Positions 3,741-39,892 of a stretch of 64,000 bases of DNA are shown here, piece by piece. The stretch comes from a phage. The notes below the pieces were generated by a model that ran no database searches, was not told where the DNA came from, and saw nothing but the letters and a program-made list of their open reading frames with translations. The stretch is taken from sequence record PZ386970.1; one strand, 5' to 3'. The translations under genes and the position numbers were made by a program. The stretch's first letter is position 1, and every line of letters starts with the position of its first letter.

Positions 3741-4756
3741 TGTGTTGCCTCAATATAAAGTTCGTTGGAATATTTGACCAGCGCTTCTCTGTCTTCGTCT
3801 GAGATATCTGGAATCGCATCAATATATTCTTTAATGATATCTTGAAGTGATTTAATCTCGATTTCCTGGTCGTCATCGGATTCAACACTGTTATCAACTT
3901 TAGAAACCATACGAAGAGAGTGAACTACTTTTTCAAGTTCAGATTCAAACTTAGTCAATTCTGAATCAATTTCTGATACTATAACACGTACGGCTAGATT
4001 AGTATAATCAGAATAATTGATTTTGCCTTTAAACGGATAAGTGATTCGTCGATGCCATGTTGTTTCATTAGGAATAAATTCCATACGTTCAACATCAGTG
4101 TCAAATACCCAGAATCCGCGCGGGTCATTCTCATCGCCTGCAGTAAGGGTCCATGGTGTCCCAATATATTTGACGTTAGCAGCTTCAGAGATTGTGTGGA
4201 AGTGGCCAGACCAGACTTGTTTATAGGTCTTTAAGAAATCAGGTTCAAGCCCATGAGACTTCATTCCTTTATAGAAATAAAAGCCATTCAGTTCCCAGTG
4301 TCCAACACAATACGCAGCAGAAGAAGTCTTGATGTGCTCTAAGATTTCACCTGTATTTTCTTCACACATCCATGGAATTAAATCAATCAGACACCCATCG
4401 AAATCAACAGTCGTAGGTTTATCATAAATAACAACATTTTTACGATGAGACAAAAGCTCTTGGGTTGTATTAGGGTATAAAGTTGTCTTATAAAAAAGGT
4501 CGTGGTTACCCAAAATAGTGTGAACGGTTATTCCAGCGTTTTCAGCCATATCAAATAATTCACGAGTAAACTCCATACAACGTTGTGTTGTGTGAGCTCG
4601 TACATCAAATACGTCCCCGTACTGTATCCATGTTGTTATTCCATTTTTAACAGAATAATCCACCATTTGTTTGAATCCGTGTCGTTGGATGTTTTGAATC
4701 CAAACATCATCCTTTTTTACACCTAAGTGCAAATCGCCCACGTTAAGAATTTTCAT
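3737..4756 (-). CDS. 47: recombination endonuclease nuclease subunit gp47 (Mre11/SbcD-like)
   Basis: Calcineurin-like phosphoesterase motifs GDLHLG and GNHD; start moved to MKILNVGD by analogy to T4 gp47. Confidence 0.85.
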   Translation of the reverse strand: MKILNVGDLHLGVKKDDVWIQNIQRHGFKQMVDYSVKNGITTWIQYGDVFDVRAHTTQRCMEFTRELFDMAENAGITVHTILGNHDLFYKTTLYPNTTQELLSHRKNVVIYDKPTTVDFDGCLIDLIPWMCEENTGEILEHIKTSSAAYCVGHWELNGFYFYKGMKSHGLEPDFLKTYKQVWSGHFHTISEAANVKYIGTPWTLTAGDENDPRGFWVFDTDVERMEFIPNETTWHRRITYPFKGKINYSDYTNLAVRVIVSEIDSELTKFESELEKVVHSLRMVSKVDNSVESDDDQEIEIKSLQDIIKEYIDAIPDISDEDREALVKYSNELYIEATQ

Positions 4757-5570
4757 ATTGCACCTTAAATTTACCATAAATTATACTGTGATAACTTAAA
4801 TCAGGAAAACCTTCTGCGACGGCTAAAGGTCTAAACTTCTTAGGACTTATTCTACCACATTTTACCCAAAGAGTATATAGTGCTTCATAATATTCAAATA
4901 ATGGTCCTTTACGAGCTTCAGAAACAGTTTTACGCACTTTGTCCTTTATTGACGGGTCTAAATTTCTAAGGGTTTCACTAATTTTGTTTCGATGGGTTTC
5001 ATTAATAAGATTTCCTTTAACCCAGCCTTCAGGTTCAGTCCCTGGGACAAACATTTTCTTTTCTTTGCCATTATTATACCATTTGCGACCTTTATTGTGA
5101 CTAGAGGCTTTATATTCAGGAGAACGACCTTTTACATTACCTTCTGGTATATAAGGTAGAAAACTTTGTTCTAACGTTTCAGGGTTGTATGAGTGTATAT
5201 GGCCTTTACCATTATGTGAGCCGTACAATGGGTGCTCTTCTTTTGGAAGTGATAATCCGAAAAATCCTTTAGGAGCAGCAATTGCTTTATTCATATACAT
5301 CGGGTTATTGGCAGCATCCACCTTTAGTTGGAGTAAACGTTCAGCTTTTGTCGCTTCTTCTCTTGTGGCGTGTTCACTTACAATACATGAATCAAAAAGA
5401 TGTGGATTCATTTTTAGTTCAGAATTGTAAATTTCCTTATACGCTTTTGATAAAACCGTTCCGTGATATCCAGCTTTATGTTTTGCAATATTTGTGGAAC
5501 CTATATAAAACGGTGGAAGTTTGTCACCATCATAAATCGTAAAATATACTATGTACATGTTATTCTCCAT
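4743..5570 (-). CDS. putative free-standing GIY-YIG homing endonuclease (Seg-like)
   Basis: N-terminal IVYF-x10-YIGS arrangement resembling GIY-YIG, followed by basic repeats resembling NUMOD3-type DNA-binding modules; occupies the slot where T4 has a-gt. Confidence 0.55.
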   Translation of the reverse strand: MENNMYIVYFTIYDGDKLPPFYIGSTNIAKHKAGYHGTVLSKAYKEIYNSELKMNPHLFDSCIVSEHATREEATKAERLLQLKVDAANNPMYMNKAIAAPKGFFGLSLPKEEHPLYGSHNGKGHIHSYNPETLEQSFLPYIPEGNVKGRSPEYKASSHNKGRKWYNNGKEKKMFVPGTEPEGWVKGNLINETHRNKISETLRNLDPSIKDKVRKTVSEARKGPLFEYYEALYTLWVKCGRISPKKFRPLAVAEGFPDLSYHSIIYGKFKVQYENS

Positions 5571-10376: not shown

Positions 10377-10847
10377 TTAATCATGTTTCCACACCCCATC
10401 GGTATTTGACCAAAGTCGCTGATTATCTGATCCTCGCCACAGCTTTTTGGTCGGAAGATTTTTCTCATACTTCCCATCAATAATAACATCAACATATTTA
10501 AGCATTTCTAGCTGTTTAATATCTTCAAACTTATATCCTGTCCACAACCAAATGCTTTTATTAGGATAAAGATTTTTTACTGTTTGAACAATGCAATGAA
10601 TAACATCTCGGTTATCAGGATAGAGAGGGTCACCTCCGGTTATAGTCAATCCTTCTATATAATCATTATTCAAACATTCAATTAATTGTTCTAGTGTTTC
10701 ACCAGTGAATGGAATACCATTTCTAGCATTCCATGTTGATTTATTATAACACCCTTCGCATTTATGCAAACACCCTGTAACGAAAAGAACGACCCTACAA
10801 CCAGGGCCATTCACAAAATCGCAAGGATAAAACCTATCATAATTCAT
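10377..10847 (-). CDS. nrdG: anaerobic ribonucleotide reductase activating protein NrdG
   Basis: 156 aa radical-SAM activase with CLHKCEGC (Cx3Cx2C) cluster motif; directly downstream of nrdD. Confidence 0.9.
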   Translation of the reverse strand: MNYDRFYPCDFVNGPGCRVVLFVTGCLHKCEGCYNKSTWNARNGIPFTGETLEQLIECLNNDYIEGLTITGGDPLYPDNRDVIHCIVQTVKNLYPNKSIWLWTGYKFEDIKQLEMLKYVDVIIDGKYEKNLPTKKLWRGSDNQRLWSNTDGVWKHD

Positions 10848-12120
10848 TGGTGTTTAACCCTATGCATGATTTCTTTATTTTTACCGAGATTAAATCCGCG
10901 TTCGTTCGGATTTCCCAAATAGCCGCATGTTCTTCTTATGGTGTTCATCTTTTTAGGATCAGTTTCTCCACAAACTGAACAAACAAATCCGTTTTCAGTA
11001 GGAGTCATTTCATGAGTACTTCCGCATGTAAAACATTTATCCACTGGCATATTAACACCAAAATAATCTAAATGTTGTGCAGCATAATCCCAGACAGCCT
11101 CAAGACCCTTTAAATTGTTTTTCATATCTGGAAGTTCAACATAAGAAATGTGACCACCTGTCGCAATGAAATGATATGGCGCTTCACGAGAAATCTTTTC
11201 AAATGGAGTAATATTTTCTTCTACTGAAACATGGAAACTGTTAGTGTACCAGCCTTTATCGGTAACATCTTTTACACTTCCATATTTTTCTGTGTCTAGT
11301 TTACAGAAACGATAACAAAGGTTTTCAGCAGGAGTAGAATACAAACTAAAAGCAAATCCAGTTCTTTCAGTCCACTGTTTAAGATGAGCATTCATTTTAG
11401 TTAAAATTTCTTGCCCAATATCACGACCAACAAGAATATTCAATTCATGAATACCAATGTATCCTAAAGACACTGAACTTCTACCATTTTTAAATAACTC
11501 AATTATGTCATCATCAGGTTTAAGACGAACCCCGAATGCACCTTCTTGGTAAAGAATAGGAGCAACAGTCGCTTTAACTCCTTTTAAGGAACTAATTCTA
11601 CACATCAAAGCTTCAAAACATAAATCCATTCGTTCATTGAATAATTCAACAAATTTCTGTTCATTGAACTGTGTTCCAATATAAGAATCTAATGCGATAC
11701 GAGGAAGATTCAGTGTTACAACACCGAGATTATTACGTCCATCAAGAATTTCATTACCAGTCGAATCTTTCCATACACTCAAGAAACTACGGCAGCCCAT
11801 TGGAGAAACAGGAACAGATGAACCGGTAATAGCTTTATTATTCTTAACAGAAATAATGTCAGGATACATTCTTTTGCTTGCACATTCTAACGCAAGTTGT
11901 TTAATATCATAGTTCGGATCATCTTTATAAAGATTAACACCCTCTTCAACAAACATAACAAGTTTAGGAAAAATAGGAGTTATCCCATCACGACCAAGAC
12001 CTTTAATACGATTTTTCAGAATTGCTTTCTGAATCATTCGTTCAGTCCAGTCAGTTCCCGTACCAAATGTAATTGTTACAAAAGGCGTTTGTCCATTAGA
12101 GCTGAAAAGTGTATTTACTT
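10844..12120 (-). CDS. nrdD: anaerobic ribonucleotide reductase NrdD, exon 2 (5' boundary approximate)
   Basis: Glycyl radical motif RTCGYLG and C-terminal zinc ribbon CFTCGS...CSVCGE; reading frame continues from exon 1 across a roughly 1 kb intron; splice acceptor not mapped. Confidence 0.8.
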
Positions 12121-13164
12121 CATCATTATATTCAGCATGAGTCGCAAATTCATGCCCGTTTATATGAAACAACAAAATTTGGATAGTCCATAGATATGCA
12201 ACGTTCTTTTATAGTGCTAGGATGAAAATTTAGCGCTTTAGCTGCTTCTATATAAGACGTATACTTAATACCGTCAACAACCACATATTCAGGAACTTTA
12301 TGAATAGTAGTCTTAATACTCAAAACAAGAGGATGAGTTTCGACTTCACTTTCAGTGCAATTTAAATATTCCGCTGCTTTTTTAAAACTTCTAAAAGTTT
12401 TATTTTTAAGCTTTATCGATACTTGTTTTTTACTTTTTCGACTATTGATATTATTTTGCACATGTTCCTTAGATCTTCCATTTTTAGCATAATATTCAGC
12501 TACAGAAGATTTTATATTGTTTTTATGAGATTTGGATAACACTTTACCCTTATGAGCATCTCTTAATTTTTGAATATGTTCTTCAGTATCCGGATGTTTA
12601 TAAAACTTTTTACCGCCTATGGATTTATTTAAACATTTTTTGCTATAAAAATATTTACGTATGACCTCTTCTTCATGTTTTAATGCATCTTTATAACTAT
12701 CAAATGTTTTTAAAATTATCCATTTAGTAGGTGTATCAGTTTTTAAGCGTTCATTTATATACTTAGATGACGTTGTGTAAGTTTTCCAGTTTGTGGGCTT
12801 GTTTTTAATTGTTCTAAATTTTTTATAACCGATATAAATGTCGCCATTAGAAAACTTAACTAAGTATGTAAATGCGTCTTTATCTTTTATTTTAGTACAA
12901 CGTCTTTTTATCCATTTCATTGTTTCACCTCGTATTCATAAGATAATCTTATTTATACAAGATGACTGCTGCATGTCGCCATGCAGATTAGACTATATCT
13001 TCATCTTTCGATGCCGGCCGTTTCGAATAGCATTAGCTTCTATTCTACACCGTTACATTCATCACGGTTAGTCGTTAGGCATTTAGTTCAAAAGAACATT
13101 TAGCACGGGATTGTCTTACTAGAGAGGTTCCCCGTTTAGACCGGTTTTACATGAGCCTGAATTA
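12121..13164 (-). other. group I intron in nrdD (boundaries approximate)
   Basis: Exon 1 frame hits a stop at 13162-13164; GC-rich structured non-coding sequence at 12925-13160; embedded endonuclease ORF; same arrangement as the T4 nrdD intron. Confidence 0.6.
12150..12920 (-). mobile_element. intron-encoded GIY-YIG homing endonuclease
   Basis: 256 aa ORF inside the nrdD intron; TYL-x7-IYIGY arrangement near the N-terminus and basic repeats (KGKVLSKSHKNNIKSS, KNGRSKEH) resembling NUMOD3 modules. Confidence 0.65.
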
Positions 13165-13707
13165 AATTAACTCATACGCCTGAAATGCATCGTATACATC
13201 TTTTTCTGTTTTAGATTGAGCATAATTCAACGCATCAGCGATTTGCCATTTTTCTGCATCCTCAATATGTTTTGCATAGGTGCGTTTAACATAAGGAGAA
13301 AGTACTTTATCTACATTTGCAAAAGTCGTTCCGCCGTATTGATGGGAAGCAACCTGTGCAGTAATTTGTGCCATAATTGCAGTAGCAACGCCAATTGATT
13401 TAGGAGTTTCAATCTGTGCATTACCTAGCTTAAATCCATTTTCAAGCATTCCTTTTAAATCTACTAAACAGCAATTAGTAAAAGGAAGAGCAGGGGAATA
13501 ATCAATATCGTGCACGTGAATAATTCCGCTTTCATGCGCTTTCATAATAAAAGACGGGACCATATTTTTGGCAATGTGTTTAGACACAATACCAGCCATA
13601 AGGTCCCGTTGAGTTGGAAAAACACGAGAATCTTTATTAGCATTCTCGTTCAAAAGATCTTTATTAGTTTTATGAATTAATCCTTCAATTTCTTTTTCAA
13701 TTTTCAT
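13165..13707 (-). CDS. nrdD: anaerobic ribonucleotide reductase NrdD, exon 1
   Basis: 181 aa N-terminal portion of class III RNR; terminates at the intron boundary. Confidence 0.8.
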
Positions 13708-39737: not shown

Positions 39738-39814
<77 letters not shown>

Positions 39815-39817
39815 GAT

Positions 39818-39892
39818 TGGTGACCCTGGCTGGTTTCGATCCAGCTACCTATCAGTTATGAGCTGACAGCTCTCCCATTGAGCTACAGGGCC
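39818..39892 (-). tRNA. tRNA with CAU anticodon (Met or Ile2-type)
   Basis: Hand-folded cloverleaf on the minus strand: acceptor GGCCCUG/CAGGGUC, D-stem GCUC/GAGC, anticodon loop CUCAUAA, T-arm GCUGG-AUCGAAA-CCAGC, encoded CCA; 3 nt from the tRNA-Arg 5' end. Confidence 0.7.

Follow-up and report, generated by a model that had tools for sequence, protein, structure and literature searches.

A probable mobile group I intron of the T4 sunY/nrdD type, with an I-TevII-family GIY-YIG endonuclease gene, in nrdD of a T4-like phage

The nrdD gene of a T4-like phage is interrupted by an element that is, with a probability of about 90%, a self-splicing, mobile intron of group I, subgroup IA2 (T4 sunY/nrdD type), carrying a gene for an I-TevII-family GIY-YIG endonuclease. 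This element was found in a 64,000-nucleotide stretch of DNA (record PZ386970.1), hereafter referred to as the window. Its anatomy, junction, RNA pairs, catalytic residues and fold, homology with I-TevII and distribution were derived from sequence analysis, and its activity was derived from homology with T4. The initial annotation had described nrdD as interrupted by a group I intron with a GIY-YIG endonuclease, and this description was borne out by a match to the group I intron model RF00028 (72.3 bits), by junction mapping and by the SegE_GIY-YIG profile. Judged by sequence comparison, the element is of a known kind, namely, a diverged lineage of the intron of T4, in which the core and the ORF have diverged together and which is already present in public genomes.

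The DNA of the window is T4-like (Tequatrovirus), and a 24-kb stretch of it is approximately 96% identical to several Escherichia Tequatrovirus genomes. The minus-strand gene order, nrdG, nrdD, gene 49 (endonuclease VII), pin and nrdC, is the same as in T4. In the list of ORFs, NrdD appeared as two pieces (13707..13162 and 12175..10844) with a 256-aa ORF (12920..12150) in between; the first piece covered positions 1-141 of the Pfam NRDD profile and the second covered positions 145-562. Exon 1 (13170..13707, minus strand; Pfam NRDD, 1.5e-40) is composed of 179 codons and the first base of codon Tyr180. Exon 2 (10844..12123, minus strand; Pfam NRDD, 6.7e-123, and Gly_radical, 1.2e-25; junction mapped against T4 and KMB39) opens with AU GAA GUA..., which completes Tyr180, and includes the glycyl-radical domain; at the junction, it lacks a start codon of its own. 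The downstream activase gene nrdG (10377..10847, minus strand; Pfam Fer4_12, 2.3e-48) overlaps the nrdD stop, its start being located four bases ahead of that stop (10844-10847). T4 carries the HNH endonuclease gene mobC between nrdG and nrdD, whereas mobC is absent from the window at this place.

The intron was located at 12124..13169 (minus strand; 1046 nt), based on RF00028 and on the mapping of the T4 and KMB39 junctions. It starts with UAAUUUAAUUCAGGCUCAUG and ends with ...AAUAUAAUG, the last base being G (12124). The junction is fixed by the mapping of the T4 intron, the colinearity of the KMB39 allele and the restoration of a 605-aa NrdD. The T4 annotation gives nrdD as a two-piece CDS with a 1033-nt intron, which maps to the same position as the window intron; a single T4 junction combines U before the 5' splice site with G before the 3' splice site, and it gives ...AYE-Y-EVNTL.... 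The intronless KMB39 allele is colinear through exactly the window junction, with ...TATGAAT before it and ATGAAGTAAAT... after it. Excision of the intron in silico gave a 605-aa NrdD with 99.3% identity to T4 NrdD. An in-frame TAA (13162..13164, minus strand) ends exon-1 translation two codons inside the intron, and both T4 and the third lineage described below (L006) have it at this position. The interval 12121-13164 that had been proposed for the intron was right to within 3-5 nt, the true intron being 13169..12124. Likewise, exon 1 was correctly recognized, but it ends at 13170 and not at 13165, the latter being the end of the read-through ORF before the intronic TAA (13164..13162), and the piece proposed as exon 2, from 10844 to about 12120, is real, but its junction is at 12123. 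In public records with the window-type intron (e.g. JK45, L005 12045-14907), nrdD is mostly given as two CDS, with no join or intron, and the exon-2 CDS starts spuriously within the intron, overlapping the endonuclease gene.

The ribozyme core (P1-P9 with the exon part of P1; 12969..13205, minus strand) matched RF00028 over model positions 1-253 with a score of 72.3 bits (gathering score, 50; E 5e-18 in a 1.5-kb sub-scan). The helices P1, P3, P4, P5, P6, P6a, P7, P7.1, P7.2, P8 and P9 were recognized in this core. In P1, the 3' end of exon 1 (...AUGAGU) pairs with GCUCAU, and its final U (13170) makes the U.G pair. The G+C content was 0.37-0.405 in the core versus 0.265-0.285 in the endonuclease ORF. 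The GC-rich structured segment pointed out in the initial annotation is this core, matched far beyond chance, and the fold and covariance model proposed there as a check returned the P1-P9 helices and a match to the full model.

For the window and T4 types, 51/51 core pairs were formed in all sequences, 12 of them having changed on both sides. After the addition of the third lineage (L006), 99.5% of the cells were paired (1/204 unpaired) and 16 pairs showed double changes, these counts representing three independent lineages and a structure drawn from the same sequences. In controls with the partners slid by 1-3 columns, 31-38% of the cells were paired, with 0-2 double changes. Helices P6a, P7.1, P7.2 and P8 were essentially rebuilt between lineages; their sequences in the window differ from those of T4, as does the sequence of the terminal hairpin.

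As in T4, the 3' splice site is remote from the core, and the endonuclease ORF follows P9. A 3'-terminal hairpin of 7 bp (12134..12156, minus strand; RNAfold) overlaps the ORF stop, with 10 nt from the hairpin to the terminal G. Its stem is different in each lineage (GGCAUGA/UCAUGCU in the window, GUAGAG/CUCUAC in T4 and GGGGGAG/CUCCUCC in L006). Within the remote 3' splice-site domain, this hairpin is probably the P9.2-like element.

When the whole 64-kb window was scanned with Rfam, the group I intron went unreported in both the gathering and the E-value mode, which is attributable to a filter effect. Other structured RNAs of the window could escape whole-window Rfam scans in the same way. 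A match to snoZ159 at 12045-12133 had an E-value of 4.4 and was set aside as noise. A search of the window with the conserved P7/J8-7 motif gave no second core of the T4 type, apart from a one-mismatch site at chance level.

The 256-aa ORF (12150..12920, minus strand, including the stop), located 3' of P9, was assigned to the I-TevII-family GIY-YIG homing endonucleases based on profiles, homology and fold. It matched the SegE_GIY-YIG profile PF19835 with 27.4 bits (cut-off 25) and NUMOD1 with 25.6 bits (cut-off 22.8), but none of the HNH profiles of Pfam, even at E<=10. With the general GIY-YIG model PF01541, the score was 7.2 bits for this ORF and 9.9 bits for T4 I-TevII; overall, T4 I-TevII showed the same profile pattern with slightly lower scores. 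The NCBIfam models gave no match to the ORF. Among 50 homologues, 27 matched SegE_GIY-YIG and none matched HNH, and in their alignment Y29, G31, E83 and N98 were invariant and Y19 was nearly so, these residues being the hallmarks of GIY-YIG. With the SegE_GIY-YIG score above the cut-off and the hallmark residues kept, the GIY-YIG N-terminus proposed for the ORF at 12920..12150 was confirmed. Classification by GIY-YIG and HNH profiles, which the initial annotation had put forward together with an HNH match as counter-evidence, gave GIY-YIG and not HNH; this objection does not apply, because the enzyme is GIY-YIG and matched no HNH profile. The NUMOD3-like basic repeats described for the ORF received loose support. 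NUMOD3 was matched by 24/50 family homologues and scored 18.8 bits with T4 I-TevII, below the cut-off of 20.4, but gave no match to the window ORF even at E<=10.

The AlphaFold2 model of the 256-aa protein (pLDDT 91.5) contained the GIY-YIG fold, and the top three Foldseek matches of this model were the DNA-binding and catalytic domains of I-TevI. The family profile, searched against the PDB, matched the I-TevI DNA-binding domain 1i3j, including the I-TevI linker. A phmmer search of the PDB with the single sequence gave nothing relevant, and family-profile and fold searches were needed. Compared with T4 I-TevII, the ORF showed 56% identity end to end (tblastn E about 1e-85; hmmer 2.9e-81), and the two are full-length homologues with the same domain order. 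In a set of 5.8 billion proteins, only two clusters at 90% identity were found, one of the window type with 64 members and one of the T4 type with 38 members. Exhaustive HMMER searches gave further GIY-YIG relatives at 38% identity and lower; the closest outgroup protein (P0003) was absent from the viral contigs searched.

Upstream of the ORF, we identified expression signals that are shared with T4. The T4 late-promoter consensus TATAAATA (12950..12957, minus strand) is located just upstream of the ORF, and T4 carries the same late-promoter motif at the equivalent place. This promoter sits within the 5' arm and loop of a hairpin (12925..12965, minus strand; RNAfold, -17.3 kcal/mol) that is predicted to pair, and thereby sequester, the Shine-Dalgarno (SD) sequence GAGG (12931..12928) of long transcripts. 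The equivalent hairpin of T4 has a predicted energy of -15.5 kcal/mol (RNAfold), and the window hairpin differs from it in having a larger loop and an extra small stem. The window and T4 lineages have the block TATGAATACGAGGTGAAAC in unchanged form, whereas the surrounding intron is about 65% identical. The T4 intron ORFs have late and middle promoters (PMC2988022), and in the published scheme the ribosome-binding site is hidden in long early transcripts and exposed in late ones (PMC2988022, PMC3984707). By analogy, the promoter, the SD hairpin and the invariant TATGAATACGAGGTGAAAC block of the window match this scheme of regulation in T4. The invariant block also agrees with the operator, or homing-site mimic, that has been proposed (PMC2988022, PMC3984707). 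A candidate for such a mimic upstream of the window ORF showed a weak match to the homing site (14/20 positions); it was left out of the evidence because 3-4% of shuffled sequences reach the same match.

By homology with T4, the element would function as follows. The nrdD pre-mRNA would be made early. Its ribozyme core, which spans P1-P9 and has both the P3/P7 pseudoknot and an extension made up of P7.1 and P7.2, would cleave after U13170 with the help of a free guanosine. The exons would then be joined after the terminal G12124, giving the mRNA for the 605-aa NrdD. The endonuclease ORF would occupy the 3' peripheral part of the intron, between P9 and the terminal hairpin. In long early transcripts, its ribosome-binding site would be locked in the hairpin, while late transcripts, beginning at TATAAATA within the hairpin, would free the site, so that the enzyme would be made late. 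In a mixed infection, the predicted enzyme, a GIY-YIG nuclease with helix-turn-helix DNA-binding modules, would cut an intronless nrdD near the exon junction, and repair templated by the intron-bearing genome would bring in the intron along with short tracts of flanking exon.

The intron of the window and the nrdD (sunY) intron of T4, with its I-TevII gene, are in the same gene and at the same insertion site (codon Tyr180), and both have a core with P7.1 and P7.2. They also share the ORF 3' of P9, the terminal hairpin over the ORF stop, the early in-frame stop, and the late promoter with its SD-sequestering hairpin. Their lengths are similar (intron of 1046 nt and ORF of 256 aa in the window; 1033 nt and 258 aa in T4). 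At the nucleotide level, the window and T4 are 96.7% identical in exon 1 and 94.5% in exon 2, but 69% in the 5' part of the intron (from the core to the ORF start), 63% in the ORF and 62% in the 3' tail. Identity drops precisely where the splice sites lie, rather than at the ends of the ORF.

A third lineage was found at the same NrdD codon in the uncultured phage contig IMGVR_UViG_3300018411_000208 (L006, 2718-3812). Its junction reads ...YDAFQGLE before and Y EINTL after the intron, and the intron includes a group I core (81.5 bits), a GIY-YIG ORF after P9 and a terminal hairpin. The insertion site, the position of the ORF and the terminal hairpin are common to L006 and the window, whereas, relative to the window, protein identity is only about 49% for exon 1 of the host NrdD and 36% for the ORF, and the core is 72% identical. 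Across the three lineages, the core identities were 72-75%, while the ORFs were 56% identical between the window and T4 and 34-36% identical to that of L006.

Such unequal identities of the ORFs, next to about equal identities of the cores, would be accounted for if the ribozyme belonged to the T4 lineage and its endonuclease had been separately replaced by a related free-standing GIY-YIG gene, giving the two parts different histories. An invasion of the sunY intron by an endonuclease has indeed been proposed (Loizos et al., as cited in PMC3984707). We consider such a replacement very unlikely in this case. Divergence extends over the core (69%), the ORF (63%) and the tail (62%), and its sharp boundaries coincide with the splice sites rather than with the ends of the ORF; the window and T4 also have in common where the ORF lies, the SD block and the terminal hairpin. 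Furthermore, saturation of the variable helices would lead to near-equal identities of the cores. The divergence of core and ORF together, as one intron lineage, is the reading that we prefer.

Among the records of the phage collection, the window-type ORF was found at >=95% amino acid identity in 45 records, and the T4 type (56% identity) in about 24. In 622/691 records with the nrdD region, nrdD was uninterrupted at the intron site, or nearly so, this count including phage 215Ecol030PP with its 479-nt intron remnant. Compared with JK45, the window intron was 99.5% identical, while identity was 95.7% for exon 1, 96.5% for exon 2, 94.3% for gene 49 and 97.2% for nrdG. Synonymous exon variants at the junction followed the intron type: the variants CAGGCG.. 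before and ..GTAAATACACTTTTCAG after the junction were common to the window, JK45 and 215Ecol030PP, and CAAGCT.. before and ..GTGAACACGTTATTCAG after it were common to T4 and U5. The 99.5% identity of the intron next to flanks of 94-97% (JK45), in conjunction with the lineage-specific exon variants, fits an old lineage with recent homing and co-conversion. Judging from these comparisons, the window element appears to be a second, old intron lineage that has recently spread among Tequatroviruses. The JK45 record labels the window-type ORF as I-TevII, and the copy in the window is >99% identical to those in dozens of deposited genomes. In the literature on nrdD introns and I-TevII that we covered, a scope exclusive of the survey of T-even intron distribution by Sandegren and Sjoberg 2004 (JBC), the window lineage was not described.

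Decay was detected in relatives of both intron types. In 215Ecol030PP (L003, PP328843.1; 551-1029), a deletion has removed 567 nt of the ORF from a window-type intron, so that 479 nt remain, with the core intact; here, the ORF was lost after the intron had become fixed. The I-TevII ORF of the T4-type intron of U5 (L004, AY262145.2) is frameshifted, and in F1 and 236Ecol005PP (records MT682712.1 and PP434423.1) the window-type ORF is in two pieces. The frameshift in U5 and the split ORFs of F1 and 236Ecol005PP therefore indicate decay of the endonuclease in both lineages. With such decay in four relatives (215Ecol030PP, U5, F1 and 236Ecol005PP), and with nrdD given as two CDS in many records, the window element might itself be a decayed relic, in which splicing is lost or the endonuclease is dead, and nrdD is a split pseudogene or makes two polypeptides, as in the nrdA/mobE case of Aeh1. 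The state of the window copy makes this highly improbable. Its 51/51 core pairs are intact, and its ORF is full length with intact catalytic residues, differing from the common form by approximately one residue. Between the window and T4, the nrdD exons are under strong purifying selection (dN 0.0035, dS 0.26, dN/dS about 0.014), and exon 2 is without a start codon at the junction. For the ORF, the same comparison gave a dN of 0.38, a dS of 1.45 and a dN/dS of about 0.26.

The element was also compared with the other intron systems of T-even phages. The td intron of T4, with I-TevI, is in another gene and at another site, and no close sequence relationship with I-TevI was detected by phmmer search of the PDB with the single window sequence. 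The ORF of the td intron lies within the loop of P6 rather than downstream of P9. The nrdB intron of RB3 and T4, with I-TevIII, likewise interrupts a gene for a ribonucleotide reductase and is a group I intron of T-even phages; however, I-TevIII, which has zinc fingers, is of the HNH type and belongs to nrdB, whereas the window ORF is in nrdD and matches no HNH profile. I-TevI (td) and I-TevII (nrdD) are GIY-YIG enzymes, and I-TevIII (nrdB, active in RB3) is an HNH enzyme (PMC2988022, Table 1); I-TevIII is also described as the enzyme of the RB3 nrdB intron in PMC1865063. In the RefSeq record of T4, the ORF of the nrdD intron is given as 'I-TevII homing endonuclease ... GIY-YIG family'. The initial annotation had named I-TevIII, of the HNH type, as the enzyme of the T4 nrdD intron, which is contradicted by both the RefSeq record and PMC2988022. 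Its further proposal, that a different endonuclease has colonized this intron position, fails because the premise mixed up I-TevIII (nrdB) and I-TevII (nrdD), the window ORF being a full-length I-TevII homologue (56%) in the same place. That a GIY-YIG enzyme of a different family replaced an HNH enzyme of the T4 nrdD intron is hardly conceivable: the window ORF is indeed GIY-YIG and not HNH, but so is the T4 nrdD intron enzyme itself, I-TevIII being in nrdB, and the two align end to end at 56% in the same place in the intron.

The 44% amino acid divergence from T4 I-TevII includes the DNA-binding modules, and the window-type enzyme may recognize or cut the nrdD homing site in a manner unlike that of T4 I-TevII. 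Tentatively, the window-type enzyme could be a functionally distinct sister of I-TevII, with two old lineages competing for one site and the window lineage being the commoner in sequenced Tequatroviruses (45 versus about 24 records); we regard this as possible but doubtful. Because the nrdD/sunY intron and its I-TevII form a textbook system, the element carries little weight as a discovery. Through the second and third lineages, covariation of the sunY ribozyme can be followed in natural sequences and the specificity of I-TevII can be compared between natural variants, and the 99.5% identity of the intron between flanks of 94-97% illustrates recent homing by an old intron. The split annotation of nrdD and the missed intron in the whole-window Rfam scans are relevant to annotation pipelines.

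Two further features of the window were observed outside the nrdD region. Only two tRNA genes, Arg-TCT and Met-CAT, were detected in the window by ARAGORN and Rfam (39738-39892, minus strand); the tRNA genes of T4 form a cluster of eight. In addition, a 275-aa ORF is located at 4743-5570 (minus strand), between gene 47 and the gene 55 region, in a segment of approximately 0.8 kb that is missing from JK45. Pfam gave no match to this ORF, which matched PHROG 10820, labelled as an HNH endonuclease (E 6e-75), and phrog_314 (homing endonuclease), while its N-terminus (MYIVYF...PPFYIGST) is GIY-YIG-like in appearance. Judging from these matches, it is probably a free-standing seg-type homing endonuclease.
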